A stretch of 64,000 nucleotides of DNA, taken from NCBI GenBank assembly GCA_903851135.1, contig CAINNK010000012.1, positions 4,282 to 68,281 on the forward strand, written 5' to 3'. Positions 13,680-39,125 of the stretch are shown piece by piece. Each line of letters starts with the position of its first letter. Position 1 is the stretch's first letter. The DNA is from an uncultured bacterium. Its GTDB lineage: Bacteria; Patescibacteriota; Minisyncoccia; Moranbacterales; GWC2-37-73. A program made the position numbers and the translations under genes. The notes beneath the pieces were generated by a model. That model did not search any database, was not told where the DNA came from, and saw only the letters and a list, made by a program, of their open reading frames with translations.

Positions 13680-13766
13680 TGTCATCCTGAACTTGTTTCA
13701 GGATCTTCGTTGCAGAAAAGCTGGTGATTTTAATTAAGTAGATGCTGAAACAAGTTCAGCATGACA
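13680..13766. repeat. GTCATYC...GRATGAC inverted-repeat element, copy 1 (upstream of TrmB paralog)
   Basis: Left arm TGTCATCCTGAACTTGTTTCAGGATC, right arm GATGCTGAAACAAGTTCAGCATGACA; each arm carries its own CTGAA..TTCAG hairpin with compensatory G/C changes. Confidence 0.6.
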
Positions 13767-14782: not shown

Positions 14783-17700
14783 ATGGTTAAAATTATCAAT
14801 CAAAATAATCCTGCCAATCCTTCCGTTCAAATCGCAGCAGACAAACTGTTGCAGAAAATGCGAGGACAATCAGAAGAAGAGCAGGCAGCTTTGCTGGCCA
14901 ATGCTTATGGTTTGCCATATGTTGATTTGAACATTTTCCCAGTCAGTTCTGAAAAAATCAGAACCATCAGTGAAGAAGATTCTCGGCAATACAAAATGGC
15001 GGTGTTTCAAAAAGTTGGAAAGGAAACCAGGATCGGTGTGCTCGACCCGTCTAGCGAGGGCATGCTTTTGCATCTCGAAAAACTAAAGAAAGAAAATGGC
15101 TGGATGATAATCCTGTATGTCATCTCGCAATCATCGCTGGAAAAAATTTGGAAGAGATATCAAGAAGTTCCTTTGCTTGAAAACCTTGAAGCGATGCAAA
15201 TTTCTCTGAGCGGTGAAGACCTGGAACGATTTGATGAGGAATTTGGCAGCATGCTGGATTTGAAAAAACGCATCAAGGAAATTCCAACCACCCAGATAAT
15301 TTCCATTATCATGGCTGGCGCTGTCAAAATGAAAGCCAGTGACATTCACTTTGAACCTCAAGAAAAAGAAGTGCGGATGCGTTTTCGTGTGGATGGTATT
15401 TTGCAAAATATCGGAGATTTTCCAGCAGATGTTTATCATTTTATTCTCTCCAGAATCAAAATGATGGGCAAGATGAAAATCAACATCAAGGACATTGCTC
15501 AAGACGGTCATTTTTCAATTGACATGACGGATGGCAAAATCAATGTGCGTACCAGCATCATTCCCGGTAATCACGGAGAATCAGTAGTAATGAGGCTTTT
15601 GAGTCAAGCTGACACCCTTTTGTCTGTTGAAGATTTGGGCTTGCGAGGATTGGCCTATGAAAATGTGCAAAAAGAAATTACCAAGCCCCATGGCATGATT
15701 TTAACAACCGGACCAACCGGTAGCGGGAAAACTACCACCTTGTATGCTTTGGTAAACAAACTTAATACGCAAGGGGTCAAAATAATCACCATCGAAGATC
15801 CGATTGAATATGAAATTAAAAACATTTCCCAAACTCAAGTTGCCAAAGATCGTAACTATACTTTTGCGGAAGGGCTTCGCGCGATTGTGCGTCAAGATCC
15901 GGACGTTATTTTAGTGGGAGAAATTCGAGATGAAGAAACTTCTGACATTTCAATTAATGCAGCGCTTACTGGCCATTTGGTGCTTTCAACACTCCACACC
16001 AATAATGCGCCAGCTTCGATTCCGCGTTTTATTGAGTTGGGAGTTAAACCGAATTTGATCGCGCCTTCTGTTAATGCTTTTATCGCTCAGCGCTTAGTGC
16101 GAAAGCTTTGCCCGCATTGCAAAGAAAGCTATGAGCCAGCCAAGGAAACAATTGATTCCATGAAAAAAATTCTTTCGATTATTTCGCCGAAAGCCAAAAT
16201 CGAAATTCCCAAAGAGGTTAAATCGCTATATCGTCCAGTTGGTTGTGACAAATGTCACGGGCTTGGTTTCAAAGGACGAATTGGAATTTTCGAAGTTCTG
16301 ACAATCAGTGAAAGTGTGGAAAAATTGATTCTTGAAATGGGCAGCGAAAGAGAAATAACTCAAGCAGCGCTGGAAGATGGCATGATAACCATGGCGCAAG
16401 ACGGAATTCTCAAGGCGATTGAGGGCGTAACTTCAATGGAAGAAGTTTGGCGTGCCACTGGGCAAACTGATTTTCTGGAAGACATCTATGCCAAGCTCAT
16501 GGAGTCTTCACTTTCACGCTCGATTGAAGTGACCAAAGATGATTTGGATTTCGTTTTTGAAAACATGACGTCCATTGACTCACTTGGGGGCATGATTAAG
16601 GAGGCTAATCAAAAAAGTATAGCCAAATATTTATTTGCCAGTAGTTTGCTTTTAGATGTTGGTGATATTCACATTGAACCAGAAGAGCATGATGTTAAAA
16701 TTCGTTTTCGAATTGATGGAATTTTGCAAACAGTTGCCATGGTTCCCTTAAATGAATACCCAAGCATTCTGGGCGAAATAAAATTTTTGAGCGGCTTTGC
16801 CAGTGAAGTCCGCGGCGGAGTGATTGATGGTCGTTTCATGATTTCACTTGAAGAGCCTTTTAAAAATATTTCTGAAACTAAAATTGACGTGCGCGTTTCG
16901 ATTATTCTGGGTGGCTACGGCGAAACAGTTGTAATGCGAATTTTGAACAAGTCTTCCATCACGCTTGATATTGAAAAATTGGGCATTCGCCAGCAAAATT
17001 TGGAAAAAATTCTAAGAGAATCGAAAAAACCGCATGGTGTGTTCCTCAACACTGGTCCAACCGGCAGCGGAAAAACCACAACCTTGTACAGTCTTTTGAA
17101 AGTGCTTAACAAATCAGAAGTGAAAATTATCACCGTTGAAGATCCGATTGAATATCAATTGGAAGGGATTTTGCAAACTCCTGTTAATGACAAAGAAGGG
17201 TATACTTTTGCTACTGCCTTGAGAGCTTTGTTGCGTCAAAACCCTGACATTATGATGATTGGTGAAATTCGCGATGAAGAAACTGCCAACATCGCCGTGC
17301 AAGCGGCTCTGACTGGCCACTCAATCCTTTCAACTTTGCACACCAACGATGCAGCTGGCTCAATTGCGCGTTTGGCCAACATGGGCGTGCGTGGTGATGA
17401 CATGGCTACTGCTATCAATGCCTTGATGGCCCAGCGTCTGGTTAGAAAACTTTGTGATTGTCGAGAAAAACGCCAGGCTTCGCCTGAAGAAAAAAACAAA
17501 ATTGAAAAAATTCTCGCCAGTGTTTCTGCCAAGTCTGGTGTGACCATTCCTACTGCTGATTTTGTTTTCCAGCCAAAGGGCTGCGAGAAATGCAAGGGCC
17601 TTGGCTACAAAGGACGCACCACGATTAGCGAAGTTTTGGTGGTTGACCGCGAAATCGAAGAGCTTATCAATCAAGGTGCATCTTCTTCTCAACTTCAAGA

Positions 17701-17800
17701 CAAAGCCATTGAAAACGGAATGATCACCATGGAGCAAGACGGAATGGTTAAAGTGTTGGAAGGCGAAACAACATTGGACGAAGTGGAGAGAGTGGTGTAG
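14783..17800 (+). CDS. tandem-fused GspE/PilB-type secretion ATPase (two complete ATPase modules in one 1005-aa protein)
   Basis: GspE N-domain then two copies of the ATPase core: Walker A TGPTGSGKTTTLYA / TGPTGSGKTTTLYS, Asp-box DPDVILVGEIRD / NPDIMMIGEIRD, His-box TGHLVLSTLHTN / TGHSILSTLHTN, and two tetracysteine Zn-fingers (CPHC..CDKC and CDC..CEKC). Confidence 0.9.
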   Translation: MVKIINQNNPANPSVQIAADKLLQKMRGQSEEEQAALLANAYGLPYVDLNIFPVSSEKIRTISEEDSRQYKMAVFQKVGKETRIGVLDPSSEGMLLHLEKLKKENGWMIILYVISQSSLEKIWKRYQEVPLLENLEAMQISLSGEDLERFDEEFGSMLDLKKRIKEIPTTQIISIIMAGAVKMKASDIHFEPQEKEVRMRFRVDGILQNIGDFPADVYHFILSRIKMMGKMKINIKDIAQDGHFSIDMTDGKINVRTSIIPGNHGESVVMRLLSQADTLLSVEDLGLRGLAYENVQKEITKPHGMILTTGPTGSGKTTTLYALVNKLNTQGVKIITIEDPIEYEIKNISQTQVAKDRNYTFAEGLRAIVRQDPDVILVGEIRDEETSDISINAALTGHLVLSTLHTNNAPASIPRFIELGVKPNLIAPSVNAFIAQRLVRKLCPHCKESYEPAKETIDSMKKILSIISPKAKIEIPKEVKSLYRPVGCDKCHGLGFKGRIGIFEVLTISESVEKLILEMGSEREITQAALEDGMITMAQDGILKAIEGVTSMEEVWRATGQTDFLEDIYAKLMESSLSRSIEVTKDDLDFVFENMTSIDSLGGMIKEANQKSIAKYLFASSLLLDVGDIHIEPEEHDVKIRFRIDGILQTVAMVPLNEYPSILGEIKFLSGFASEVRGGVIDGRFMISLEEPFKNISETKIDVRVSIILGGYGETVVMRILNKSSITLDIEKLGIRQQNLEKILRESKKPHGVFLNTGPTGSGKTTTLYSLLKVLNKSEVKIITVEDPIEYQLEGILQTPVNDKEGYTFATALRALLRQNPDIMMIGEIRDEETANIAVQAALTGHSILSTLHTNDAAGSIARLANMGVRGDDMATAINALMAQRLVRKLCDCREKRQASPEEKNKIEKILASVSAKSGVTIPTADFVFQPKGCEKCKGLGYKGRTTISEVLVVDREIEELINQGASSSQLQDKAIENGMITMEQDGMVKVLEGETTLDEVERVV

Positions 17801-19796: not shown

Positions 19797-20927
19797 TTAG
19801 ACTTTCTTGCGAAAGTTCCAGCACCTGACGGTGTCGACAAACCCCTGCTCAAGCAGATGCTCGTTGTCGAGGTTTACTGCTCGGCGACCGAGGCAAGAAT
19901 GGCACGTTTCTTGGGCGAAGTTTGCGCATTCGTTGCCGCATTTCCCACCATACTTTCGGGCGCGTATGATGCGCATCTCGGTGCTGTTCCAGCAGTCACT
20001 TAGAGATGACGTGTGCATATTGCCAAGGATCAAATCCATAGCTCCAATGCAAGGGCGAACTTCACCGTATTGCGATACATACAAGTGATGCATATATCTG
20101 TCACAAACGGTGCCGACATAGCTTTGTGAAAGTTCCCAAGCGTTGCCAAACTCTTTTGCGTCAATTTCTTGAAGCTCAAGTAGTTTGTTTTTTAGTACTT
20201 GGTCAGATGCACAAAGTTGGCAATTTGTTCCGCGACCACGCTCTAGCAAGCTATCGCAATCAAAAATGATATTATTGATTCTGCAGTAGCGCAGAATTTC
20301 AACAACATCGCTCAGATTATCAAGCATGCCATCTTCGCCAAGCATGATGCTAGTCACCAACGCCATGCGAGATTTGCGACCAAACTTTTTCAAACACTCG
20401 GCTTCATTATTGAATCTCTTGCTCATCAAAAGTTTGATCGCTTCATTGCGTTTCGCCCCATAACCCTTGCGAACAAGGTTTTCAGCGGGATTGCTTGTGA
20501 ACTGATCCTGTTTTTCAGCATCAAGCGTGTTGCCCTTGAGCATGATTTCAATGGGCAGTTCATATAATTCAGCCGCCAATTGCTCAGTTATAAATTCACC
20601 TGTTGTAAACAAGGTGACAAATATCCCAAGTTCCTGGCACTTGCGGATAATCTTCATTGTGAGGTGAAGATTTTTCCCAAGCAATGGTTCACCAGCGCCA
20701 GGAATGCCGATTGAGTCGACACCAAGCTGCTTGGCTTGATTTAAAATTGATTCGTATTGCTCGCAGGAGAGCAATTTCTCCTTTTCAAGCCTCTCACCGC
20801 CACATGCGTAACAGTAGGAACAGAAAAGGTTACAATAACCAGGAATCTCCAACCACATGGTTTGGAGCTTGCCAGTGTTTGCTCTTTCTAATCCGTGCTG
20901 AACTGATTTTGTGCTGATGTTTTTCAT
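19797..20927 (-). CDS. radical SAM enzyme with C-terminal SPASM/twitch-type Cys-rich domain (peptide/protein-modifying maturase family, anSME-like)
   Basis: CNLFCSYCYA = CxxxCxxC radical SAM cluster motif near N-terminus; C-terminal CIGAM..C..CGNECANFAQETCHSC cysteine cluster; RBS GGGAGA before ATG 20927 (MKNIS). Confidence 0.85.
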   Translation of the reverse strand: MKNISTKSVQHGLERANTGKLQTMWLEIPGYCNLFCSYCYACGGERLEKEKLLSCEQYESILNQAKQLGVDSIGIPGAGEPLLGKNLHLTMKIIRKCQELGIFVTLFTTGEFITEQLAAELYELPIEIMLKGNTLDAEKQDQFTSNPAENLVRKGYGAKRNEAIKLLMSKRFNNEAECLKKFGRKSRMALVTSIMLGEDGMLDNLSDVVEILRYCRINNIIFDCDSLLERGRGTNCQLCASDQVLKNKLLELQEIDAKEFGNAWELSQSYVGTVCDRYMHHLYVSQYGEVRPCIGAMDLILGNMHTSSLSDCWNSTEMRIIRARKYGGKCGNECANFAQETCHSCLGRRAVNLDNEHLLEQGFVDTVRCWNFRKKV

Positions 20928-20950
20928 AGTTTTCTCCCTTAATTGATTGA

Positions 20951-20976
20951 TTATGCTTCCGGCCGGAAAGCACAAA
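20951..20976 (-). promoter_or_regulatory. palindromic operator TGCTTTCCGGCCGGAAGCA inside promoter spacer of radical SAM gene
   Basis: minus-strand reading TTTGTG-ctttccggccggaagca-TAATCA; near-identical element before the 100-aa gene at 21442. Confidence 0.6.
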
Positions 20977-21115
20977 GATCAAAAGGAGGAAACACTTCGA
21001 ATTTTTAAGGGACCTTTCCAAATCTCAGCCCACTATTGCTAATGAGCTAGGACAAGGGGTGGAATAATCAGATGATTATTCCACCTGCAAATTTTCAACT
21101 AGCTAAAATGATGTT

Positions 21116-21418
21116 CTACAACTTTTTTATTTCAACTATTTCTTCTGCTGGAACATTTTTTACCATAAAAATGGTGCAGCCCTTTTTGTTTTTCCATGAC
21201 CTTGCTTTTGTTGAATTAATGACGAGGATAATTGCGGTACCGCCTACCTGAGTCCTGCTTCTTCCTGCATAACCAACTGCGCTTTGGTAGTTAGTTGTGA
21301 GAAAAACTACATCAGTGTTTTTGGTCCTATTCTCCGTCAGATTAATTCCACCCACTAAGCCATTTTCCATTATGGAATGGAGATTTTCGCTGCTTGTTCC
21401 ATGAAAGAACTGTGCCAT
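21116..21418 (-). CDS. hypothetical 100-aa protein co-regulated with radical SAM enzyme (candidate substrate/partner)
   Basis: RBS AGGAGC; N-terminal MAQFFHGTSSENLHSIMENGLVGG then Thr/Ser/Asn-rich remainder; same operator as the rSAM gene. Confidence 0.5.
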   Translation of the reverse strand: MAQFFHGTSSENLHSIMENGLVGGINLTENRTKNTDVVFLTTNYQSAVGYAGRSRTQVGGTAIILVINSTKARSWKNKKGCTIFMVKNVPAEEIVEIKKL

Positions 21419-21695: not shown

Positions 21696-22457
21696 ATGAT
21701 AAAAAACCTTCTTTCAGCTCTTAATTTTTCCGAGAAAGAATCGCTCGTCTACTTAGCGCTTCTTGAAGTTGGCAATGGAAAAGCCCAGGAAATTGCAAAA
21801 AAAACGGGACTCAATCGCACGACCGTGTATGATATTTTTGAAACTTTGATGCAAAAAGGTTTGGTGAGTAAATTCAAAAAAGGCTCCGCGACATTTTTCA
21901 ATGCTTTGGAACCAAAACATTTGTTGACCTATTTGGATCGTGAAAAAGAAGAACAATCCAAAAAGATTGAAAAGCAAAAACAAAAAGTCTCCGAGCTTTT
22001 GCCACAATTAATTTCACTTCAAAACATTTTTACCGACAAACCGAAAGTACAATTTTTCGAAGGTGAAAAGGGAATGCGAGAAGCCTATGAAGACACACTT
22101 ACTGCCGATGGAATTCTTTTGGGATATTCTAACTTAGAGACAATCCATGAGGGTTTGCCAAATTTTTTTCCTGAGTATTACAAGCGTCGAGTTGAAAAAA
22201 AGATTTTCGGTCGCGGAATTTTGCCAAGAAATAAAATATCACTCGAAAGAACCACCCATAATCAAGAGGAAATGCGCGACGTTCGTTTTCTGCCTGATGA
22301 GGACATGACCTTTTCACCAGAAGTGAACATTTACAATAACAAAATTTTGATAGTTTCCTGGAAAGAAAAAATGGCCATTCTGATTGAATCCAAAGAATTG
22401 GCTGACTTGCAAAGGCTAACTTTCAATCTTCTTTGGGAAACTTTGCCTAGGAAATAA
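21696..22457 (+). CDS. TrmB-like winged-HTH transcriptional regulator (paralog)
   Basis: ESLVYLALLEVGNGKAQEIAKKTGLNRTTVYDIFETLMQKGLV; FEGEKGMREAYEDTL; promoter TTGACA-17-TAGGAT at 21606. Confidence 0.7.
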   Translation: MIKNLLSALNFSEKESLVYLALLEVGNGKAQEIAKKTGLNRTTVYDIFETLMQKGLVSKFKKGSATFFNALEPKHLLTYLDREKEEQSKKIEKQKQKVSELLPQLISLQNIFTDKPKVQFFEGEKGMREAYEDTLTADGILLGYSNLETIHEGLPNFFPEYYKRRVEKKIFGRGILPRNKISLERTTHNQEEMRDVRFLPDEDMTFSPEVNIYNNKILIVSWKEKMAILIESKELADLQRLTFNLLWETLPRK

Positions 22458-22466
22458 CTTAGTGCC

Positions 22467-22588
22467 TGTCATTCCCGCGGAGGCGGGAATCCAGGTTTAA
22501 TGCAGATTTCTTCCTTTGATAATGGCTCTATAATAATATTTACAATCTTATTGTGATATTCTGGATTCCCGTTTTCACGGGAATGACA
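22467..22588. repeat. GTCATYC...GRATGAC inverted-repeat element, copy 2 (immediately downstream of TrmB paralog)
   Basis: arms TGTCATTCCCGCGGAGGCGGGAATCCAG / CTGGATTCCCGTTTTCACGGGAATGACA, roughly 65-nt AT-rich centre. Confidence 0.6.
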
Positions 22589-24469: not shown

Positions 24470-24521
24470 AAAGTAATAGATTGATGGTTTTAAAGGAATA
24501 ATAAATTTAGAAATTTTTTAT

Positions 24522-25181
24522 ATGAAGAAAAGGAATGAATCAATAATAAATGAATTGAATTTATTGTTAAGACGGGATTTTTGTTCTGAGGACTTGATAA
24601 TAATCCTAGAGCAATTATACCCAGATACATATGAAAAAAGTGTTGGAGTCTGGGAGAAATATACTCTAAAGCAACATACTTTAATGGTAATGGGGCAGTT
24701 TGAAAAATATTTTAGTTGTAAGGATTTACCTTTGGATTTTAACAGAGGAATTTTCAGACTGTTTCTTGCTTTGCATGACATAGGGAAACCTATGGCAATA
24801 AGCAAAGAGGGTAAGCACTTGCAACATAAATATACCCAAGAATATATCTCGAAACTATTTAAAGAGTTGGGTATTGATAGTAAGCATTTCAATTTAGTTA
24901 TGTCTTTAGTGTCGAGCGATCCAATAGGCGGATATTTAACTGAAAAATTAGATGAAGAAAAAACAAAAGAAGTTGTCCGACAGATGGCAGAATGTGCAGG
25001 GGTTAATGCGCGTGATTTTTTTAAACTGCTTTGCATATATTATAAGGTTGATGCAGGTAGTTATACTGAAAATGCTGGAGGTCTTAAATCTCTCGATCAC
25101 TTATTTGTTTTCGATGAAGATAATCGTGAATTGAATTTTGCAATTAATATTCAGCATAAAATGGATAGAATAGATCTGTGA
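24522..25181 (+). CDS. HD-domain phosphohydrolase-like protein
   Basis: H..H...LALHDIGKP metal-binding HD signature (HTLMVMGQ...FLALHDIGKPMAI). Confidence 0.6.
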   Translation: MKKRNESIINELNLLLRRDFCSEDLIIILEQLYPDTYEKSVGVWEKYTLKQHTLMVMGQFEKYFSCKDLPLDFNRGIFRLFLALHDIGKPMAISKEGKHLQHKYTQEYISKLFKELGIDSKHFNLVMSLVSSDPIGGYLTEKLDEEKTKEVVRQMAECAGVNARDFFKLLCIYYKVDAGSYTENAGGLKSLDHLFVFDEDNRELNFAINIQHKMDRIDL

Positions 25182-25261
25182 GAAATTTTATCTCCTCAAA
25201 TTTTGCTGCTTATTCATTTGTGTGAAGAAAAAAATAGACCGGTCTAAAAGAGAAATCTTAT

Positions 25262-25320
25262 AAGTCGGCCTCCATCCTTGAGAGTATGAAAAGTTCGTGC
25301 TTTCAAAAAGTGGAGAAGAC
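25262..25320 (+). repeat. conserved 3' cassette-end element, copy A
   Basis: GTCGGCC..CCATCCTTGAGAGTATGAAAAGTTCGTGCTTTCAAAAAGTGGAGAA, 21-62 nt after stop of upstream gene. Confidence 0.6.
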
Positions 25321-25483
25321 AGAGCGATGCGGTTTTTCCTCCAAAGGCGGACAATTGGGTTACAGACACTGAACCGACAAGGAAGATTTCAGCAAAAACT
25401 AGCTTATTTGTCAACATTTTTGATAAATAATTTTAATTATCCTATTTTTAAGCTATTTATTGGGGTATATGTGTATTATGTTA

Positions 25484-25586
25484 TTGATAATTTTGACGAA
25501 ATAGTGTAAGATAGCTTGTTATAGTTCATTTACATCACAACGCTTATCATAAAAAAATGATGAGCACAACCAAGGAGGATATTATG
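25484..25586 (+). promoter_or_regulatory. conserved promoter plus leader (extended -10) shared with 26947..27027
   Basis: TTGATA-17-TGtTAAGAT then AGCTTGTTATAGTTCATTTACA...AGGAGGATATTATGG; about 80% identical over roughly 70 nt to the region before 27025. Confidence 0.6.
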
Positions 25587-25892
25587 GAAAAAATAGCAAG
25601 CATTTTAACGCAAGGAACGATTGAGAATTTACTCGATGTATTCGGTTGGAAGGGTTTTGTACCCTATAACGCTTGTATATTTTTTGATGCGTGGAAAGAG
25701 ATTCAGGGCGATTCCGTTAATCTTGAATGCTCAATTTCCGAAAAAGAACACTGTTTTGATGTACATCTTCATCGAATAGGGTTTGTTTCCCCTAGAATAA
25801 TAGATGTGCAAGGATTAAGTGTGCAACAAATCATACGGCTCCTCATTGCAGATGACACGTATAAAGAACTTCGTAAGATAAAACCGGAGTAA
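25584..25892 (+). CDS. hypothetical small protein (102 aa)
   Basis: AGGAGG RBS 7 nt before ATG 25584 (MEKIASILTQ..); ORF track starts it 27 nt earlier. Confidence 0.5.
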   Translation: MEKIASILTQGTIENLLDVFGWKGFVPYNACIFFDAWKEIQGDSVNLECSISEKEHCFDVHLHRIGFVSPRIIDVQGLSVQQIIRLLIADDTYKELRKIKPE

Positions 25893-25923
25893 GTTGTACT
25901 TTAATCCTGCTTTACAAAAAAGC

Positions 25924-25998
25924 TGCCGACCCAGAAATCCTTCTGAGTCGGCCCCATCCTTGAAGACATAAAAGTTTGTGTTTTCAAGAAATGGATAA
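25924..25998 (+). repeat. conserved 3' cassette-end element, copy B (hairpin plus motif)
   Basis: hairpin CCGACCCAGAAATCCTTCTGAGTCGG then CCATCCTTGAAGACATAAAAGTTTGTGTTTTCAAGAAATGGATAA. Confidence 0.65.
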
Positions 25999-26073
25999 AC
26001 TGAGAACAGTGCAGTTCAAGTCATAGACGTTGAACCAATAAGTAGGTTATTTTTATTGAATTGGTTACTCTTT

Positions 26074-26847
26074 TTATTTTTTCTTTATCTCACTCCATAA
26101 ATTGCTAAAAACTTCACGCAAATTATGTGCCATGACCGGATTATAAATTTCAATCAGATAAAATGGGCGATTCTGCGTATAAATCATGATAATATAATCT
26201 CCAATAATCCAAAAAGAGGAAGTGAAATTTTTGCCAGTGCCCCAAAAATTGATTTCTCGTTGGGCGATTTTTTTTTCCACCATTTTCTTTTCAATTTCTG
26301 AAGCGTTGCTAAACATTTTCAATTGAATATTCTGAGTCGAAGGAGTTTTTAGCCAAAAAGCATCAATCCATTTTTTGTAGTGAGCCACAAGCGTATGGTC
26401 TTGAAAACCCCACCAGGTACTATCATACTTTTTTGCACTTTTGTTCCAGTCATTAGTTTGTTTATACAAATAATCTTCTAAATCAGCTTCTTCGATAAAT
26501 CTAATCTTTGGCATTGCATATTGCTGATTGGTTGGTAATTTCGATAATTCCTCCATCGCTTGTGTAATGAGTTTCTCTTCTTCCTTGAGTGACTGTTTCT
26601 TTTTTTCCAGCATATTGGTGAGTTGTTCTGGCGGAAGCGCCACTAAATAGATATACTTTTGGCCGATATCTTCAATTAAAACGCCCTTTTGGATTAAGCT
26701 CTTGGCGACGCTATAAACCGTTGTTCTATTGATGCCTGTATTCTTGGCAATTCTAACCGGAGTTGATCGCCCTAGGCGTAAAGCTTCAAGATAGATTTCT
26801 ACCTCTTTATCATTAAAGCCAATTTTTTTGAGTATTTCTTGAATCAT
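26074..26847 (-). CDS. TrmB-like winged-HTH transcriptional regulator (paralog)
   Basis: EIYLEALRLGRSTPVRIAKNTGINRTTVYSVAKSLIQKGVL; minus-strand promoter TTGACT-17-TATAAT ends 8 nt before the ATG (leaderless). Confidence 0.7.
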   Translation of the reverse strand: MIQEILKKIGFNDKEVEIYLEALRLGRSTPVRIAKNTGINRTTVYSVAKSLIQKGVLIEDIGQKYIYLVALPPEQLTNMLEKKKQSLKEEEKLITQAMEELSKLPTNQQYAMPKIRFIEEADLEDYLYKQTNDWNKSAKKYDSTWWGFQDHTLVAHYKKWIDAFWLKTPSTQNIQLKMFSNASEIEKKMVEKKIAQREINFWGTGKNFTSSFWIIGDYIIMIYTQNRPFYLIEIYNPVMAHNLREVFSNLWSEIKKK

Positions 26848-26946
26848 ATAGCTTTATTATAGCATGTTGTTGAAGACTAGTCAACAGTATTTTATTGCTT
26901 AAATAAAGCAATAAGTCCTTATAAAAATTAAACTGTTGCCAATATT

Positions 26947-27027
26947 ATTGACAGTTTGTCAAAAACAGTGTAAGCTTACTTGTTATAGTTCATTTACAAT
27001 TCACAATTTAATTAGGAGGATATTATG
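26947..27027 (+). promoter_or_regulatory. conserved promoter plus leader, second copy
   Basis: TTGACA(26947)-17-TGtTAAGCT, leader AGCTTACTTGTTATAGTTCATTTACAATTCACAA, AGGAGGATATTATGG. Confidence 0.6.
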
Positions 27028-27267
27028 GATATTCGTTTCGTGCAGACTTGTGGTTGCTGTCCCGAACAGTACGATGCTTATCTCGGGGATAAGTATGTCG
27101 GATATGTCCGTGAGCGAGGGGGTAGCTTTACAGTCGAGTATCCCGGAAAGGATGACTGTGAAAGAGAGTTACTTTTTTCTGCATATTCTGACGAGGGTTT
27201 TTCAAGTCAGTGGATGCTTAAAAAGGCAAGGAGGGCGATATGGAAAAAAATCATATCAATTCTCTAA
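27025..27267 (+). CDS. hypothetical small Cys-containing protein (80 aa)
   Basis: strong RBS; MDIRFVQTCGCCPEQYDAY.. ; followed by perfect hairpin CTGCCGATAGAATGGTTTTCTATCGGC and a degenerate copy of the 3' element. Confidence 0.5.
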   Translation: MDIRFVQTCGCCPEQYDAYLGDKYVGYVRERGGSFTVEYPGKDDCERELLFSAYSDEGFSSQWMLKKARRAIWKKIISIL

Positions 27268-27505
27268 CTTTCCGGACGGGAATACTTCACCCGTTGGCAA
27301 CAGAACCTCTGCAAAGAGGAAACGAAGGAGACCTGCACCGAACAGGTCGAAACGAGTCTGAAAGTCTCGAAAAAACTTTCAACAACTGCCGATAGAATGG
27401 TTTTCTATCGGCTCAATCCTCAGGAATATATTTTTGCAAAATGTATTTCTAAGGGATGAAAAAAGTTCATTACGAATAAAGCAGTTGAAAACAAGGAGAT
27501 AGAAA

Positions 27506-27958
27506 ATGAAATTGTTAGCAGAAAATGCAATTTTAAAATCAGTTAAAGGTAAGGGCGAGAACAAGCGGAATTGCTATTATCTTTATCTTGATGATCTGCC
27601 CAAAATAAAATTGGGAAATCTCGAGAGGACGCGAGGCAAGAAGAAACTTTTCATCATCGAGGATGAAGCTCTTGAGTCAGTTGAAACATTCATTGATAAG
27701 CTCTCGCTTTCAATTGAAGATGCGGCCCAAGACTCGGCAGTGGAGAGATTTTTTCATAGTCTTGTTTCTTGTAGAGGTAAAGAGGGAGAAGTGGCAATCA
27801 TCCTTGAACCACGTATGTGGCCCCTTACGGGATTATACAAGGTATTTGCTGGTGATCCTGATTACATCAAGGAGGATTTGAGCACACCGTGCCTCGCTTC
27901 GTATTATAAGGGGCAAATGCCATATCCATATGGCAAAATCAAAAAAAGCCTTTTTTGA
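27506..27958 (+). CDS. hypothetical protein (150 aa)
   Basis: ORF with GGAGA RBS; no motif recognised. Confidence 0.45.
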   Translation: MKLLAENAILKSVKGKGENKRNCYYLYLDDLPKIKLGNLERTRGKKKLFIIEDEALESVETFIDKLSLSIEDAAQDSAVERFFHSLVSCRGKEGEVAIILEPRMWPLTGLYKVFAGDPDYIKEDLSTPCLASYYKGQMPYPYGKIKKSLF

Positions 27959-27963
27959 TTCAA

Positions 27964-28040
27964 CTGGCTGATTTAGAAATCTTTTTAAATCAGCCCCATC
28001 CTTGAAGACATAAAAGTTTGTGTTTTCAAGAAATGGAGAA
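27964..28040 (+). repeat. conserved 3' cassette-end element, copy C
   Basis: palindrome GGCTGATTTAGAAATCTTTTTAAATCAGCC then CCATCCTTGAAGACATAAAAGTTTGTGTTTTCAAGAAATGGAGAA (44/45 identical to copy B). Confidence 0.65.
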
Positions 28041-28090
28041 ATTAATAATTAACAAGTTTTGTAGCTTAAAAAATAAACAAGGAGATTAAA

Positions 28091-28432
28091 ATGGTAGACG
28101 TTAGAAGAGAAGTAAGACTTATTAAAATTATTACAATCATTTGCTTGCTCATGATTTTAATTTGTATAGTAGTCTGTCCCGAAGTAATTGTTTGGCTGGC
28201 TATTTTGATTTTTGCCGGGTATGTTTCCTGGCTAATCGATATGAAAGTTTGGTTGGAGGATAAAAAAATTTGGCTTGGTTATGATGAAGAAGCATTTCCT
28301 AGACCAGATGAAACCTGGGGAGAAGGCTTTTCCAGGCCGGATGACGTTTGGGAAGCAGTTTTTATAGACCTGAGTATTTTTTATTCGGTATATGAAAAAT
28401 TCTTAAGGCATAAAAAAATCCAAAAGTTATGA
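28091..28432 (+). CDS. hypothetical small membrane protein (2 TM)
   Basis: IKIITIICLLMILICIVVCPEVIVWLAILIFAGYVSWLI hydrophobic segments. Confidence 0.4.
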   Translation: MVDVRREVRLIKIITIICLLMILICIVVCPEVIVWLAILIFAGYVSWLIDMKVWLEDKKIWLGYDEEAFPRPDETWGEGFSRPDDVWEAVFIDLSIFYSVYEKFLRHKKIQKL

Positions 28433-28514: not shown

Positions 28515-28553
28515 TAGCGCAAGCGGAAAATCTTTTCCCTTGCGCTTTTTTTA
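28515..28553 (+). terminator. rho-independent terminator
   Basis: AGCGCAAGCGGAAAATCTTTTCCCTTGCGCT followed by TTTTTTT. Confidence 0.7.
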
Positions 28554-28562
28554 TAAACAAAA

Positions 28563-33867: not shown

Positions 33868-34421
33868 TGGAGTGTTCCTTGTTTTGGTATTTTTCAAAGA
33901 AAGAAATATCACCTTGGTCCAAAATTTTAAGGACTTTAGTGAATACAAAAAGGTTAATTCCTCTAGGTACCAAAACATTTTAGCAAAGTGTGAAAATATG
34001 TCAAGGGGTCTCAGAAACCCGATTTTATCGGCCTATTTGATTGTTATTTTGAAATAAAAAAGCCACCTCGCACGAATTATGCAAGGTGGTGAAACATTAT
34101 ACTCATTAAAGATATTTGTTTATTGCCGAGAGTGACCCCAAAAATAAAGAGCGGATGATTCGCTTTGTTTTGCAATTGCTGAAGAAATAAAAAATTGATA
34201 TGAAAAAAGCGCAAGAGGAAAATATTTTCCAATTGCGCTAGAAATTCTTTTTGCTTTTAATTAATATGCTGTAGATACAGATAATACAAAAGCAGAGTCA
34301 AGCCTGCCCCTAAGCAGCTCCATTTAAAATTAACCCAAGCCACTTTGGGATCCTGTGAAAATACTCTGGCAAAGATCTTTTTCATGTTTTTCTCCGTTTT
34401 TTTTGTTTTAATGTTTGGTTT

Positions 34422-34497
34422 TTCCATCTCTTGAAAGTACGAATTTTCATACTCTCAATGATGGGGCCGAGGTGGAAAGATTTCCAAATCGGCCAGG
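34422..34497 (-). repeat. conserved 3' cassette-end element, copy D (minus orientation)
   Basis: reverse complement reads hairpin GGCCGATTTGGAAATCTTTCCACCTCGGCC then CCATCATTGAGAGTATGAAAATTCGTACTTTCAAGAGATGGAAAAACC, directly downstream of the minus-strand gene 34505..34996. Confidence 0.6.
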
Positions 34498-34504
34498 TTA
34501 TTGT

Positions 34505-34996
34505 TTACTCCTGCAGTGACTTTGGGATTGCTGGTATTGTGTTGACAGAGACCATAAGATTATTGAGCGCCATCAACTTTAAAGTTACTTCCTCCCAGGT
34601 GCCTTTGAATCCAAGAAAATCTGAAAATGTGTTTTTTGCGATCTTTTCATATTCTTCATCCTTGGTTCTATCCGAAGATGTGCACCATGTGCAATCACCT
34701 ATGTATGCCTCATTATTATTTCTAAAGACAGCGGATAAACACCAGCGCGAGAAATCGCTGGAAAACAGATCAAGATCCAAGATTACATTAAATGGAATGT
34801 CAGGATCAGGGTCGTCATCTTCTGAACAGCACTCTATGGAATCATTAAGCGGTACGTTAGGAAGAATAATATCAAGAATAGAGAGTTTGTTAAATAGTAG
34901 ACACCACTCTTCCATAATTCCTACATTTGTATGATAGTCAAAATTACTCACTTCGGAAGCGATGCTTTTGATAATTGAATCGGAAGGCTTTTCCAT
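34505..34996 (-). CDS. hypothetical acidic protein (163 aa)
   Basis: compositionally protein-like (mixed, acidic, Cys pairs); preferred over the overlapping Ser-rich + strand ORF 34431..34934. Confidence 0.4.
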   Translation of the reverse strand: MEKPSDSIIKSIASEVSNFDYHTNVGIMEEWCLLFNKLSILDIILPNVPLNDSIECCSEDDDPDPDIPFNVILDLDLFSSDFSRWCLSAVFRNNNEAYIGDCTWCTSSDRTKDEEYEKIAKNTFSDFLGFKGTWEEVTLKLMALNNLMVSVNTIPAIPKSLQE

Positions 34997-35085
34997 GACT
35001 TTGTTTTTTTGATTGTTGTTGAATAGCTGTTTTTATAAATAGATGCGAAGTTTTGACCAAGGATAACTTCGCAAACCTTATTCTT

Positions 35086-35394
35086 CTAACAAACAATAGG
35101 GTTCATAATAATTTTTATGTCAAACAATCTATCGTTATGTCCCCTAAGAGAAGCATTTTGGGCATGAAGCTCCTCAATCTCTAGCTTCAAACTCTCTAGA
35201 GTTTCTACTTCTCCGCATTCTTCTGCGGACTTTTCTGCACTTTCGATGGGTTTGTATTTGGTGATTTCTTCGCCTGTTTCATTAAGCAATTCATCATTGT
35301 ATTCCCTAAGGGAAATACTTTGGGCGCGAAGTGACTTGATCTCGAGCTTCAAGCTCGCTAGAGTTTCTTCGTGTCCGCATTTTTCTGTTTTCAT
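35086..35394 (-). CDS. hypothetical coiled-coil protein with internal 2x roughly 45-aa repeat
   Basis: GGAGA RBS; repeats EETLASLKLEIKSLRAQSISLREYND / VETLESLKLEIEELHAQNASLRGHND. Confidence 0.4.
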   Translation of the reverse strand: MKTEKCGHEETLASLKLEIKSLRAQSISLREYNDELLNETGEEITKYKPIESAEKSAEECGEVETLESLKLEIEELHAQNASLRGHNDRLFDIKIIMNPIVC

Positions 35395-35545
35395 TTTTTC
35401 TCCGTTGGTTGCGTTTTTAAATAACTTTTTGTTAGATGATAGGTTATTCCTAATTCATCTTAACGAGCAAGTATATACTATTTTTGGTATTTTATCAATA
35501 GTAAAAAATGATAATATGCCTAAAAATAGCTTAAAAATAGGATAA

Positions 35546-35594
35546 TTAAAATTATTTATCAAGAATGTTGACAAATATGGTGGTTTTTGGTGGG
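35546..35594 (+). repeat. 51-bp direct repeat copy 1 (contains promoter-like TTGACAAATATGGTGGTTTTTGG)
   Basis: AATTAAAATTATTTATCAAGAATGTTGACAAATATGGTGGTTTTTGGTGGG; 48/51 identical to 37137..37187; the two copies bracket the methyltransferase plus PRTase pair. Confidence 0.6.
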
Positions 35595-35682
35595 CTATAG
35601 AGATAAAGAAGCTAAGTCTCCAAGGGGAGGCTTAGCTTCTAAAACTTTATTGTGATGTTCGGTTAGTTAAAGAAAAACAAAT

Positions 35683-36375: not shown

Positions 36376-36395
36376 ATTTTTTAATTTAATTTAAT

Positions 36396-37028
36396 TTAAT
36401 TCTGCTTGATTCTGCTTGTTACTTTTGACCTATTTCCATTTGAAAGGAAGCTTACTAGAACTTTTGGCATAATTCCAGTTTCTCTTGCTATTCTTTCTCT
36501 TCCTTTGTAATCAGATTTTTCAGCAACTGAGAATATGTCAACAACTTCCACTCCAGCGCTTCTGAGCAACTTAACCATCGCTATGATAGTGCCGCCAGTA
36601 TCTATGATGTCGTCGACGATGATTGCTCTTTTTAAATTTGTCGAAAGACCATTTAGATACAATTTTCCATCCGTGTAGGCATTTTTAAAATCCACATGTA
36701 TTTCTCCTTCAAAACCAGCTGGATTCCATTTTGTTAGGGTGAAGGGTTTGTTAAATTGCATAGACAATATCGCGCAGAGATAGCCGCCCCTGTCTTCTTC
36801 ACCAACAATAAAATCAATATCATCGAAATTCACAATGCGAGAAGTTTCTTCTGCTATTTGTCTTAATAATTCAGGCCTTGTAATGGGAGCATGATCCGTT
36901 AAAGAGTTGACGCAGTATTTTTTGCCAGAAACCAATTTAATAGGTTTTTCGTTGAAAGTTTCAAAGATGTAATCACGCGCAGTATCTTTTTTTGAGGATA
37001 TAATACTTTTTTGATTCATATTTAGCAT
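36396..37028 (-). CDS. phosphoribosyltransferase (type I PRTase) family protein
   Basis: PRPP-binding motif RAIIVDDIIDTGGTIIAMVKLL. Confidence 0.75.
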   Translation of the reverse strand: MLNMNQKSIISSKKDTARDYIFETFNEKPIKLVSGKKYCVNSLTDHAPITRPELLRQIAEETSRIVNFDDIDFIVGEEDRGGYLCAILSMQFNKPFTLTKWNPAGFEGEIHVDFKNAYTDGKLYLNGLSTNLKRAIIVDDIIDTGGTIIAMVKLLRSAGVEVVDIFSVAEKSDYKGRERIARETGIMPKVLVSFLSNGNRSKVTSRIKQN

Positions 37029-37136
37029 ATTTTAGTTGGTTTAAATAAAGCATAACAAAATAATATACAACATTTCGACAAAATTATCAATAGTTATTTA
37101 CATGTATATGCCTTTGAAAGGCTTATAAAATGCAAA

Positions 37137-37187
37137 ATTAAAATTATTTGTCAAAGATGTTGACAAATATGGTGGTTTTTGGTAGGA
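37137..37187 (+). repeat. 51-bp direct repeat copy 2 (promoter TTGACA-17-TAGGAT driving the IR element and TrmB paralog)
   Basis: AATTAAAATTATTTGTCAAAGATGTTGACAAATATGGTGGTTTTTGGTAGG. Confidence 0.6.
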
Positions 37188-37212
37188 TTTAGGTAAGCTA
37201 ATTTTGTAATCA

Positions 37213-37318
37213 TGTCATTCTGAATTTATTTCAGGATCTCGGTTACAGGCAGTGTTGTGAAATAAAGAAAGTAGATTATGAAACCCTCCAAAGGCGGACA
37301 GGCAAGTTCAGAATGACA
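37213..37318. repeat. GTCATYC...GRATGAC inverted-repeat element, copy 3 (upstream of TrmB paralog)
   Basis: TGTCATTCTGAATTTATTTCAGGATCTCGGTTACAG ... GTTCAGAATGACA; left arm 30/35 identical to copy 1. Confidence 0.6.
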
Positions 37319-37332
37319 GCGGGATATGATAA

Positions 37333-37367
37333 AAAATCTAAAATCTAAAATCTAAAATCTAAAATCT
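37333..37367. repeat. (AAAATCT)x5 microsatellite immediately upstream of TrmB paralog start
   Basis: five perfect heptamer repeats. Confidence 0.8.
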
Positions 37368-37379
37368 ATTTAAAAATTT

Positions 37380-38123
37380 ATGGATCAAGACTTAATAAAA
37401 CTTTTGGAAACGACGGGTTTCACGGAAAAAGAGGCACAAGTGTATTTGGCGCTGGTTGAGCTTGGGACGGGAAACGTGACGGATATTTCGAAAACAACCA
37501 AGCTCAAGCGCTCGATTATTTATGTTATTTTGGAAGGCTTGATGAAAAGGGGCTATGCTAGTGAACTGCCAAATTTGAAAATCAACACCTATCAAGCGAC
37601 TGACCCGACTGTGATTTTGTCGCAACTCAAAAATGTGGCCAAAAATTTTTCAGAAATGCTCCCAATGATTCGCACGCTCGGCAGCAAGGGTAAGAGCAGA
37701 CCGAAAATCAGTTATTACGACACGAAAGAAGCAATCTTGAAGGCCTGGGAGATTATGGGTAACGAGGATGATATCTTTTATATTTATTCCTGCGAGAGAA
37801 GCGAACAGCATTATCCTGGCATAACTGATAAATGGGCTAAGGGATATAACAAAAAGATTTATCCTTTGGGAAATCGACATTTGGTGCCGAACAATAAAAG
37901 CGAAGTTGAAATAGCTCAAAAGTTTTTAGCAGTCGGCGAAAGAGTACGCTCGCTAGATGATTTAAATGGCATGAATATGGACTTTACTCTTTTCTCCAAT
38001 AAAATTTCAATTGTTTCACTTGAGGAAAATCCTTTTATTGTGGTCATTGAATCTGAGGAATTGGTCAAATCCATCCGGCCGATTTTTGAAATTGCCTGGG
38101 CGAAGGGAAAAGAGGTAAAATAG
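37380..38123 (+). CDS. TrmB-like winged-HTH transcriptional regulator (paralog)
   Basis: EAQVYLALVELGTGNVTDISKTTKLKRSIIYVILEGLMKRGY; collinear with the partial paralog at 1..372. Confidence 0.7.
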   Translation: MDQDLIKLLETTGFTEKEAQVYLALVELGTGNVTDISKTTKLKRSIIYVILEGLMKRGYASELPNLKINTYQATDPTVILSQLKNVAKNFSEMLPMIRTLGSKGKSRPKISYYDTKEAILKAWEIMGNEDDIFYIYSCERSEQHYPGITDKWAKGYNKKIYPLGNRHLVPNNKSEVEIAQKFLAVGERVRSLDDLNGMNMDFTLFSNKISIVSLEENPFIVVIESEELVKSIRPIFEIAWAKGKEVK

Positions 38124-38990: not shown

Positions 38991-39125
38991 AAAATTAAAA
39001 TGTAAATCTCAAAAATAAAAATGACAATTAAAAATTAAAAATGCATTCAGGTTAATAGTTTTGCATTTTTCTTTGTCATTTTCCATTTTGATTTTTTATT
39101 TTTACAATTTCTTTTTTAATATAGA
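38991..39125. repeat. AT-rich inverted-repeat element (family shared with 50692..50820 and 55744..55845)
   Basis: AATGTAAATCTCAAAAATAAAAATGACAAT ... and reverse-complement AAAATCAAAATGGAAAATGACAA (22-mer identical to 50705). Confidence 0.5.

Follow-up and report, generated by a model that had tools for sequence, protein, structure and literature searches.

A conserved two-hairpin element behind unrelated genes at a mosaic locus of an uncultured small-genome lake bacterium: a probable 3′ RNA module and homology patch

Structured repeats at the 3′ ends of genes have been described in several unrelated settings. The REP and BIME elements of enterobacteria are transcribed, act as 3′ stabilisers of the upstream message and also serve as recombination junctions. 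In the early region of phage T7, the RNase III sites constitute a repeated and conserved hairpin between cistrons; it contains an internal loop, does not act as a terminator, and on cleavage leaves a protective 3′ hairpin on the upstream message. The attC sites of integrons stand in fixed orientation after unrelated ORFs, with stems that are conserved by covariation rather than by sequence, while the content of the cassettes varies. Finally, the promoter-early stem-loops (PeSLs) are mobile regulatory cassettes of T4-type phages, whose exchange has been ascribed to homologous recombination between short repeats, with no dedicated recombinase involved (PMC2839356, PMC4122927).

A preliminary description of the DNA discussed here had pointed to a repeated 3′ element after unrelated genes, and pattern, alignment and covariance-model matches all bear this out across the window (the whole stretch of 64 kb that was analysed). 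We favour, with a probability of roughly 0.55, the reading that this element, H1-H2, is a transcribed cis-acting RNA module that doubles as a homology patch for cassette exchange. Its copies and the modules beside them are as follows.

25239-25313, plus strand: copy A, whole (covariance model, 68.6 bits)
25239..25270, plus strand: hairpin H1 of copy A (CCGGTC...GAAATCTT...GTCGGCC), 56 nt past the stop of ORF 24522..25181
25272..25313, plus strand: hairpin H2 of copy A (CCATCCTTGA...TTTCAAAAAGTGG), with inner stem AGUAUG/CGUGCU
25320..25385, plus strand: optional third module of copy A (CAGAGCGATGCGGTT...CTGAACCGACAAGGAAG), with the TCCTCCAAAGGCGGACA motif inserted
25924..25994, plus strand: copy B, H1 25924-25953 and H2 25954-25994 (91.5 bits)
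26000..26046, plus strand: third module of copy B, divergent (CTGAGAACAGTGCAGTTCAAG...GTTGAACCAATAAG)
27272..27376, plus strand: four additional small hairpins, conserved, ahead of copy E; the second and third show covariation
27388..27459, plus strand: copy E, divergent, H1 27388-27412 and H2 27413-27459 (model hit 27381-27465, 23.1 bits)
27966..28036, plus strand: copy C, H1 27966-27995 and H2 27996-28036 (100.2 bits)
34424..34494, minus strand: copy D, H1 34494-34465 and H2 34464-34424 (100.3 bits)
21011..21092, minus strand: possible sixth two-hairpin copy, very divergent (27.3 bits, E about 2e-4)

Each copy consists of two adjacent hairpins; four are strong (A to D, 68.6-100.3 bits) and the fifth, E, is divergent. 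Together with the possible sixth, which lies after the 100-aa ORF 21116..21418 and before a radical-SAM gene, a covariance-model scan of the 64 kb puts the total in the window at five to six copies, all within 21-34.5 kb. A pattern scan for the conserved 45-nt motif (chance expectation 0) finds it at 25954-25998 and 27996-28040 with at most one mismatch, and a relaxed pattern brings in 34464-34431 on the minus strand, the motif of copy D; the motif of copy A (25272-25313) carries a 1-nt indel and is therefore recovered only through alignment or the covariance model. The degenerate fifth copy that had been proposed after 27025..27267 does exist, but it lies about 120 nt past that stop, behind the four additional hairpins, and its orthologous position is kept in five related loci with different genes behind it.

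All 18 aligned copies are in sense orientation with respect to an ORF that ends 3-56 nt before H1, the minus-strand copy D included. The spacing of 20-60 nt from the stop that was first given holds only approximately, the 45-nt motif beginning about 38-90 nt past the stop codon; the gap to the element was taken up to a set position, 34 nt ahead of H2. By this measure copy D starts 6 nt past the stop of 34505..34996, with its first H1 stem base about 10 nt past it. The covariance-model hit of copy C starts 3 nt past the stop of 27506..27958 (the H1 stem proper about 7 nt past), and copy B, which is flanked by convergent genes, begins 27 nt past the stop of 25584..25892. Placement after a stop codon is not universal, since in a distant relative a diverged copy lies within a long non-coding leader that has no ORF upstream.

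The preliminary description had also taken the motif for a structured element with a variable GC hairpin in front of it. The covariance-model check upholds the structure, with covariation on the sense strand; the hairpin is not free-form, for GAAATCTTT is retained at its apex. A near-perfect 30-bp palindrome (13-4-13), H1 has arms that covary around this invariant centre, and in this respect it also looks like a recombinase core site; a folded single strand of DNA, for its part, would give the same strand and orientation signs as an RNA. H2 is built of a 4-bp lower stem, a 2x3 internal loop and a 12-bp upper stem. Written as RNA, the conserved apex of H1-H2 is GAAAUCUUU and the conserved base CCAUCNUUGA / UUUCAARARRUGGA; the distant relative retains the base of H2 under an entirely different upper stem. 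The compensatory differences reported for copy A are real, its H2 inner stem covarying with respect to copies B and C. Every copy has a folding energy well beyond that of shuffles (z -5.2 to -8.4), and 96.4% of cells in the 18-copy alignment are paired, as against 35-52% in slid controls. Compensatory change is seen in 10 of 28 pairs, or 21 of 28 once divergent copies are included, counts that overstate the number of independent events because the copies are few and related by descent. The gene-sense strand is the one with the more stable fold in 18/18 copies, and it carries 64 G-U pairs against 5 A-C pairs; this strand asymmetry, taken together with the orientation, suggests that H1-H2 acts as RNA.

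The element is also conserved beyond its surroundings. It shows 76-89% identity in places where the homologous coding sequence next to it has only 53-63% at the nucleotide level and 27-45% at the protein level, and a gene whose product is 46% protein-identical still has a 99.9-bit copy 4 nt past its stop. Conservation above that of adjacent coding sequence, with structure kept by compensatory change over long divergence, argues for selection on the element itself. Non-coding structure is thus constrained more than the surrounding protein genes in an uncultured, small-genome (candidate-phyla-like) lineage, for which, to our knowledge, almost no regulatory RNAs have been described. H1-H2 is restricted to a narrow clade: five related lake MAGs account for the true matches in public genomes and 5 contigs for those in metagenomes, while viral contigs gave no match to the element. 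The related MAGs hold one to three exact-pattern copies each, with a fourth in LJ_bin-4100 found by the covariance model only, and all of their copies lie in syntenic variable spots. Rfam 15 contains no match to the element at gathering score, and none at E up to 10 over 24-38 kb.

The genes and terminators that follow two of the copies allow the layout of a unit to be drawn.

28091..28432, plus strand: membrane-protein gene, 113 aa, downstream of copy C
28516..28555, plus strand: terminator with H1-like apex (GCGCAAGCGGAAAATCTTTTCCCTTGCGC then T-run), closing the copy C unit
34257..34385, minus strand: 42-aa single-transmembrane peptide gene, downstream of copy D
34200..34246, minus strand: terminator with H1-like apex (GCGCAATTGGAAAATATTTTCCTCTTGCGC then T-run), closing the copy D unit

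In H1-H2 itself, neither hairpin is followed by a U-tract in any copy (the sequences there are CCATCC... after H1 and AGAAAT... after H2), and terminator calling on the sense strand called no copy; lacking a U-tract, the element is not an intrinsic (Rho-independent) terminator, and it is canonical terminators with T-runs that close the units carrying it. Nor is it a generic, genome-wide terminator context, given that copies are few and confined to 21-34.5 kb in the window and that public matches are few as well. A typical unit runs from a TrmB-type promoter and conserved leader through a variable orphan ORF to H1-H2, often followed by a small membrane-peptide gene and then by the terminator with the H1-like apex. 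The promoter end of such units is represented by the features below.

25390..25583, plus strand: promoter/leader W1, driving ORF 25584..25892, with upstream palindrome TTATTTGTCAAcattTTTGATAAATAA and TTGATA-17-TAAGAT
26942..27024, plus strand: promoter/leader W2, driving ORF 27025..27267, with palindrome TTGACAGTTTGTCAA over the -35 box and -10 TAAGCT
35395..35606, minus strand: promoter/leader W3, related to W1, upstream of ORF 35086..35394
37029..37181, minus strand: promoter/leader W4, related to W1, with perfect palindrome TATTTGTCAAcatctTTGACAAATA, divergent from the TrmB gene 37380
26074..26847, minus strand: TrmB-family regulator gene (Pfam), divergent from W2

W1 and W2 have the conserved leader TTGTTATAGTTCATTT and the ribosome-binding site AGGAGGATATTATGG in common, and 25478-25534 is 79% identical to 26942-26998. 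The shared promoter/leader noted at the outset is therefore confirmed, and it extends more widely than was claimed, to 35461-35592 and 37037-37181 on the minus strand. The TrmB-family product of 26074..26847 is likely to be the regulator of the shared promoters. Several gene units have a promoter of their own, and only at copy A does one (W1) directly follow the element. In another species W3 is retained with 93% conservation and the ORF that follows has been replaced.

This replacement is one instance of a broader pattern, in which gene-plus-element units vary between related genomes, as had been suspected, with breakpoints at shared boundary sequences. Different ORFs are found between the same promoter/leader and H1-H2, and the modules U, H1, H2 and D reassort among related loci. 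Breakpoints map to three positions: the stop codon or the 5′ edge of H1, the junction between the two hairpins, and the end of H2 on its 3′ side. Behind conserved leaders there are others, some 7 nt beyond the ATG. H1 co-segregates with the gene upstream, H2 with the sequence downstream and the peptide gene; one genome carries H2 and the peptide gene twice, with a different gene upstream in each case (L017 and L029). One cassette, 35077-34423, was transferred recently: its identity is 99.1%, in a backbone with 73-88% (about 85%). Ten independent contigs of the population that carries the window's array share one arrangement, with no sign of ongoing shuffling. That breakpoints occupy at least three positions, and that promoters, leaders and terminators have them as well, fits exchange wherever homology exists, and we infer that cassette exchange is RecA-type. 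A stretch of 30 nt of identity is at the lower limit for exchange of this type.

The window's gene content was surveyed with Pfam: of 65 ORFs (70 aa or longer, selected so as not to overlap), all but three overlapping or doubtful ones were screened. No recombinase, integrase or transposase family matched among the ORFs so screened, in agreement with the first impression that an integrase is absent from the window, and the same screen gave no RAYT or IS200-like gene either. The gene tables available for related loci list no tyrosine or serine recombinase and no transposase within up to 10 kb on either side. PolA, RuvABC, a Mur ligase and a PBP provide a chromosomal context; phage and plasmid records showed no similarity, and the cassette proteins have no family matches. 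The HD domain assigned to 24522..25181 is weakly supported (HDIG E 0.013, Cas3-HD E 3.5e-4).

To which gene the element belongs can be argued both ways. Most C- and D-type copies have a peptide gene 26-71 nt after H2 (54 nt from the end of H2 to the ATG of 28091 for copy C), and in related loci peptides homologous to the product of 34257..34385 likewise follow the element. H1-H2 might thus be the 5′ regulatory leader of the small membrane-peptide gene rather than a 3′ element of the gene upstream, whether as a ligand- or protein-responsive switch, as a sequestering structure of the kind found in type I toxin mRNAs or as a new self-cleaving RNA. The joint inheritance and duplication of H2 and peptide gene agree with this, as does the distant relative: there a candidate type III hammerhead comes after an H1-like hairpin, which suggests RNA processing in such leaders. 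We still consider it unlikely, given that copies A and B and several in related loci have no downstream gene in the same orientation, that H1 begins a few nt past the stop of an upstream gene with which it travels, that no Rfam riboswitch or ribozyme matches H1-H2 at E up to 10, and that the downstream ribosome-binding site, situated well clear of H2, is not sequestered by any alternative pairing. A selfish or neutral intergenic repeat of REP/BIME or MITE type, functionless and spread by a transposase in trans, with mosaicism as a by-product, strikes us as quite unlikely. Like REP and BIME, the element is palindromic and extragenic, sits at gene 3′ ends or between co-directional genes and occurs in mosaic combinations of modules (H1, H2, the third module and the CCTCCAAAGGCGGACAGGCAAGT motif), and the same genome has other small palindromic repeat families. 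Unlike the hundreds of dispersed copies tied to RAYT transposases in enterobacteria, however, there is here only a handful, in two variable spots, always in sense orientation and conserved above neighbouring genes with compensatory retention of structure. As for MITEs, the unit ends (AACYGG... / ...TGGAGAA) are not complementary, which leaves the element without terminal inverted repeats, and no target duplication is visible in the alignment of the copies and their flanks.

The preliminary description had leaned towards an integron or attC-like array, or else a shared 3′-UTR regulatory RNA. A DNA-level site in which H1, as a folded strand or as the 13-4-13 palindrome, is recognised by a recombinase encoded elsewhere that excises and inserts gene units would account for cassette replacement whose breakpoints flank H1 or fall on the H1|H2 junction, and for a 99%-identical cassette in a diverged backbone; covarying arms around an invariant centre are the behaviour of structure-recognised sites such as attC, and orientation is fixed relative to the ORF. 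The attC comparison itself fails: RYYYAAC occurs 5′ of H1 in 5/18 copies, GTTRRRY 3′ of H2 in 1/18, and the inverse core pair in 0/18, and in place of a single R''/L''-L'/R' hairpin folded from the bottom strand there are two independent hairpins that fold better from the coding-sense strand. An integron's intI, attI and Pc are missing here, no recombinase family having matched in the window's ORFs or in the tables of genes for related loci; the units bear their own promoters, and copy D lies on the opposite strand. Breakpoints that are scattered rather than at one position, the lack of any recombinase at these loci and an array invariant within one population likewise weigh against a site-specific system, which we regard as very unlikely. 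Less probable again would be an unrecognised cassette-exchange system with an integron-like outcome, in which H1, with its GAAATCTTT centre, is the crossover site of promoter-bearing cassettes, H2 is the start of the next unit and the recombinase is encoded elsewhere or of an unfamiliar type. Cassette-like architecture with conserved 3′ hairpins need not, then, mean an integron. The shared 3′-UTR RNA fits better, with the addition that the repeats are also recombination junctions.

In the reading that we prefer, an RNA module that is also a homology patch, H1-H2 would be a lineage-restricted module in the 3′-UTR or between the cistrons of accessory-gene units and would most likely be a processing or stability determinant of the message, for instance as a barrier to 3′ exonucleases or as a site for a double-strand RNase or RNA-binding protein, by which the fate of the upstream message would be uncoupled from the downstream peptide gene. 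As to which specific activity is at work (processing, stability or protein binding), we can offer only a guess. The T7 RNase III sites are the mechanistic analogue that we favour, with the difference that H2 is shorter and paired with a second hairpin. Since the same 30-80 nt are repeated at several units, H1-H2 would serve as a portable homology patch, and the shared promoter/leader and the terminators would be further patches; homologous recombination at them would replace whole ORFs and produce a cassette-like mosaic without an integrase. The incoming DNA would probably be taken up from relatives, and the window has a TfoX-N gene and a PilB-like ATPase gene, which are compatible with DNA uptake.

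The parallel with PeSLs is close in that small orphan genes of hyperplastic regions lie between conserved motifs, a stem-loop and a sigma-70-type promoter, and that the breakpoints of insertions, deletions and replacements fall within these motifs; replacement within motifs is found here. The host here is a bacterial chromosome rather than a phage, H1-H2 is a conserved bipartite structure without a U-tract and probably no terminator, and promoter and stem-loop adjoin each other at some junctions only, such as that from copy A to W1. The locus may thus represent a phage-style shuffling of regulatory cassettes in a bacterial chromosome, in which unrelated orphan genes can move in and out of a hot spot by virtue of the promoters, leaders and 3′ structures that they share. 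In sister strains, the hot spot holds toxin-antitoxin genes (HEPN/MNT, Fic).

The 3′ element consists of two adjacent hairpins, H1 and H2. H1 is approximately 30 nt long (GGYCGA...TCGRCC) and keeps the apex GAAATCTTT, so the "variable GC hairpin" of the preliminary description is too loose a label for it, although the two-part 3′ element described there is real; H2 spans 41–42 nt (CCATCNTTGA ... TTTCAARARRTGG). A pattern search of the window for the 45-nt motif, for which no match is expected by chance, returned 25954-25998 and 27996-28040, neither differing at more than one position, and a relaxed pattern added 34464-34431 on the reverse strand. Copy A (25272-25313) differs from the motif by a 1-nt indel and was found via alignment and a covariance model, R1, made from 13 copies. 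Within the window, R1 gives four strong copies scores of 68.6–100.3 bits, and two further regions score lower:

25239-25313, forward strand: copy A
25924-25994, forward strand: copy B
27966-28036, forward strand: copy C
34494-34424, reverse strand: copy D
27388-27459, forward strand: copy E, degenerate, with the two-hairpin shape retained and the sequence different, 23.1 bits
21011-21092, reverse strand: possible, very divergent sixth copy, 27.3 bits

The last of these two-hairpin elements lies after a 100-aa ORF (21116-21418, reverse strand) with weak similarity to the C-terminal half of RNA 2′-phosphotransferase, an ADP-ribosyltransferase-like fold (E 9e-6), and is followed by a radical-SAM/SPASM gene (19797-20975, reverse strand).

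Single-sequence folds of the copies are much more stable than those of shuffled sequences (z -5.2 to -8.4). In alignment A4, whose 18 strong copies come from both the window and related loci, 96.4% of cells are standard-paired, as opposed to 35–52% when the 3′ partners are slid, and both sides have changed at 10 of 28 pairs; once divergent copies are added (alignment A7, model-fitted and so biased toward structure), 96% of cells are paired and both sides have changed at 21/28 pairs. G-U pairs outnumber A-C pairs by 64 to 5, and 18/18 copies fold more stably on the strand that reads in the sense of the upstream gene. An ORF in the same orientation ends 3–56 nt upstream of every copy, and this holds for copy D on the opposite strand as well. 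The earlier claim of a structured element with compensatory change is borne out by this pairing, far above the slid controls, and by the excess of G-U over A-C on the sense strand.

The element is also better conserved than the genes it adjoins. Elements following homologues of the 163-aa gene that precedes copy D are 76–89% identical to that copy, while the genes themselves have 53–63% nucleotide and 27–45% amino acid identity; P0002, a homologue with 46% protein identity, has a 99.9-bit copy 4 nt past its stop codon. This protein family is small (12 clusters among 1.84 billion representatives), and its predicted model is confident (pLDDT 81.6) and found no match in the PDB. In L063, a locus from a more distant relative, GCCGA...TCGGC and CCAYYTTTGAG...TTTCAAAGAGTGGAA persist in an intercistronic copy whose upper stem is wholly different; homologues of the 163-aa family more distant still have no copy of the element. 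A second, diverged copy in L063 lies inside a non-coding hairpin chain of about 900 nt (MFE -371 kcal/mol, z -12.9). This chain (L063:1255-2165) is an unbroken run of near-perfect hairpins without any ORF, situated between a TrmB gene and the 163-aa gene homologue, and at L063:1583-1637 there is a candidate type III hammerhead (CUGAUGA-GUCAGAAAUGAC-GAAAC), which at 41.8 bits falls below the gathering score of 48.5 (E 2.8e-7). Taken together, the strand asymmetry, the invariable sense orientation, the compensatory changes across deep divergence and a degree of conservation exceeding that of coding sequence point to H1-H2 functioning as a single strand in the sense of the gene, for which a transcript would be the simplest candidate.

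H1-H2 forms one part of a larger unit, which in 5′ to 3′ order comprises:

part 1: promoter, its -35 box covered or preceded by a palindrome, often with a divergently transcribed TrmB gene alongside
part 2: conserved leader beginning directly after the -10 box (TTGTTATAGTTCATTT)
part 3: variable ORF without family assignment
part 4: H1-H2
part 5, in C- and D-type units: single-transmembrane peptide gene of 36–113 aa, 26–71 nt past H2, then a terminator

The promoter and leader said to be common to the small genes 25584 and 27025 are indeed shared, and related promoter regions occur at 35461-35592 and 37037-37181 (reverse strand). A third module (CAGAAYAGTGCGGTTCAG...CTGAACCGACAAGGAG) takes the place of the peptide gene after copies A and B and after about half of the copies elsewhere; it is sometimes interrupted, copy A included, by a CCTCCAAAGGCGGACAGGCAAGT motif that is also found at 37285-37307. 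Ahead of copy C, a chain of six hairpins (27272-27460, ~190 nt) opens with four small hairpins and closes with the two of copy E. The chain is 82–100% conserved before different genes in five related loci (L003:6503-6704, L017:3045-3275, L046:8145-8347, L047:691-900 and L048:83-282), two of its small hairpins carry compensatory changes, and it has no match in Rfam; it may represent a structured leader or an independent small RNA.

Four TrmB-family paralogues lie within 25 kb (13780-14532, 21696-22457, 26074-26847 on the reverse strand and 37380-38123), three of them transcribed away from a gene with a leader starting TTGTTAT(A/G)(G/C)TT. The palindromes TTGACAGTTTGTCAA (26949-26963) and TATTTGTCAAcatctTTGACAAATA (~37146-37170) are candidate operators, and TTGACnnnnnGTCAA and TATTTGTCAAnnnnnTTGACAAATA are candidate binding sites of paralogues 26074 and 37380. 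Palindromic repeats of the GTCATYCTGAAYTTRTTTCAGGATC type lie upstream of two paralogues (13674-13751 and 37207-37284), and TGCCTGTCATTCCC... repeats are found at 22463-22488 and 60682-60707.

When 185,579 species genomes were scanned with the exact pattern, 43 loci came up, of which 32 lack H1 and are chance matches. The 11 real loci, with 13 matches, all belong to five MAGs labelled "uncultured bacterium" and recovered from Swedish lakes (Kiruna_bin-03293, Kiruna_bin-03023, LJ_bin-4100, Ja1_bin-0683 and MJ110830A_bin-153), and one of them, L034, is an exact repeat of the two copies in L013. Five metagenome contigs match a stricter pattern, one being 99.8% identical to the window, and the viral collection holds no match to the element. 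The array shows no similarity to phage or plasmid records, and an origin from either was rejected. The gene content of the window is that of a bacterial chromosome (PolA, TsaE, RuvA/B/C, YebC, Mur ligase, class A PBP, pyruvate kinase and the four TrmB-family regulators) and suggests a member of the candidate phyla radiation. Since the window copies are confined to 21-34.5 kb among ~65 genes, a generic terminator context, which the preliminary description had named as evidence against its reading, is excluded.

Related loci from other genomes and contigs are mosaics of the window, and the variability between related genomes that a cassette array predicts does hold. When copies are classed by their upstream 120 nt, H1, H2 and downstream 120 nt, these four parts reassort, H1 tending to accompany the gene before it and H2 the sequence after it. 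Base by base, window copy D and L043 are 100% identical through the upstream gene and H1, differ at 6 positions in H2 and are unrelated downstream; conversely, L028 and L043 are 100% identical in H1, H2 and downstream sequence and unrelated upstream from the stop codon on. The break falls at the H1/H2 junction when window copy C or L046 is compared with L047, and at the 3′ end of H2 between copy C and L017; in the genome containing L017 and L029, two different genes each precede a duplicated H2 and peptide gene. On the 5′ side, homology behind the conserved leaders stops ~7 nt past the ATG (L013 versus 25584, L050 versus 35394). At a larger scale, the entire 24.5-27.9 kb array gives way in L035 to ~330 bp, where a divergent copy is accompanied by a promoter and a 23-codon ORF.

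The backbone represented by L050-L054 differs at the species level (RuvB 85%, TrmB 84% and LTD protein 73% identical to the window), yet its D cassette (window 35077-34423) is 99.1% identical and contains its sole copy of the element. A hairpin just upstream of the 163-aa gene (GCGAAGTT...AACTTCGC, 35035-35077, reverse strand), 91–94% conserved in L013, L028 and L029, marks the 5′ edge of this block. In the same backbone the interval from the 281-aa gene to RuvB holds a HEPN/MNT (nucleotidyltransferase) pair in place of the array, and a Fic/RhuM gene lies beside D (L050:17206-18181 and 10844-11824, also in L052-L054), and therefore the two variable spots flanking the RuvB-bPH-LTD block resemble hot spots for toxin-antitoxin or accessory genes. 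Continuing rearrangement inside a single population was considered and rejected: the window arrangement is identical in 10/10 contigs carrying the identical 150-aa protein, so exchange shows up in comparisons of lineages, not as shuffling still in progress.

The cassette-like pattern is thus real, and the question is what kind of exchange would produce it. A palindromic H1 with an invariant centre is what a dedicated crossover site might look like, and there is a small chance that it is one; a site-specific system, however, would not be expected to break at several positions, including promoters, leaders and terminators, and neither an integrase nor a transposase or serine recombinase was detected among ORFs of at least 70 aa in the window, in agreement with the preliminary description. 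The attC alternative raised there failed the core-site test. With breakpoints spread in this way, no recombinase and no attC cores, the pattern fits recombination on short repeated regulatory sequences, which would generate the mosaic and is the mode described for promoter-early stem-loops (PeSLs), mobile regulatory cassettes of T4-type phages (PMC2839356, PMC4122927). The original observation is upheld, as are the structured RNA and cassette variability in its interpretation, and the integron is not. H1-H2 represents a new family with a narrow distribution, belonging to a kind already known, that of structured intergenic repeats or regulatory cassettes.

As to function, H1-H2 does not resemble an intrinsic terminator: neither hairpin is followed by a T-run or called by a sense-strand terminator scan, and the same units are closed by canonical terminators, two of which (28516-28555 and, on the reverse strand, 34246-34200) share an H1-like apex GGAAAATCTTTTCC. 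The missing U-tract and the position of the element, which either closes a unit or separates an ORF from a peptide gene running in the same direction, favor a processing or stability module, by inference comparable to REP stabilisers or T7 RNase III sites. Other candidates fared less well. Rfam gave no match to the element, whether at the gathering score or with E allowed up to 10. Pairing of the leader with the 3′ element, as in mRNA circularisation, was rejected, as its duplex energies stayed within ~1–2 sd of shuffles and were inconsistent among copies. Stop-codon readthrough or a SECIS function, raised by the start of H1 a few nucleotides past the stop, was rejected on an in-frame TAG inside H1 of copy C and on D-type genes ending in TAA, and a UGA-recoding code because the standard code yields full-length PolA, RuvB and other housekeeping proteins. 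An AUG inside H2, a possible upstream start for the peptide, is in frame in 3 of ~7 downstream sequence types, but these three have homologous spacers and are not independent cases.

No tandem-repeat array overlaps the elements in a scan of 20-40 kb. Perfect short tandem repeats are present in intergenic regions near 35086-35394 (AAAATCT x5 and TTTAA x4; 37333-37368 and 36380-36401), and the 102-aa coiled-coil ORF at 35086-35394 (reverse strand) has an internal 104-nt duplication (35122-35225 versus 35284-35387, 76% identical). A-rich low-complexity repeats (AAAATGTAAAAATCAAAAATC...), direct and inverted, lie between housekeeping genes (38983-39123, 50686-50812, 55733-55850 and 56138-56221), and the region 10986-11160 is repeated in L003 with a fold no better than shuffles. 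Genes of the 23S-rRNA-IVP/bAvd family occur at 54420-54806 and, in the sister lineage, at a different position next to RuvC (L050:6360-6725), with no reverse transcriptase seen in the window. A TfoX N-terminal-domain gene is found at 62673-62996. Finally, the 1005-aa protein encoded at 14783-17800 has two type II/IV secretion ATPase (T2SSE, PilB-like) halves, and internal DNA repeats (15888-16029/17232-17373 and 16366-16446/17704-17784) indicate a fused tandem duplication.
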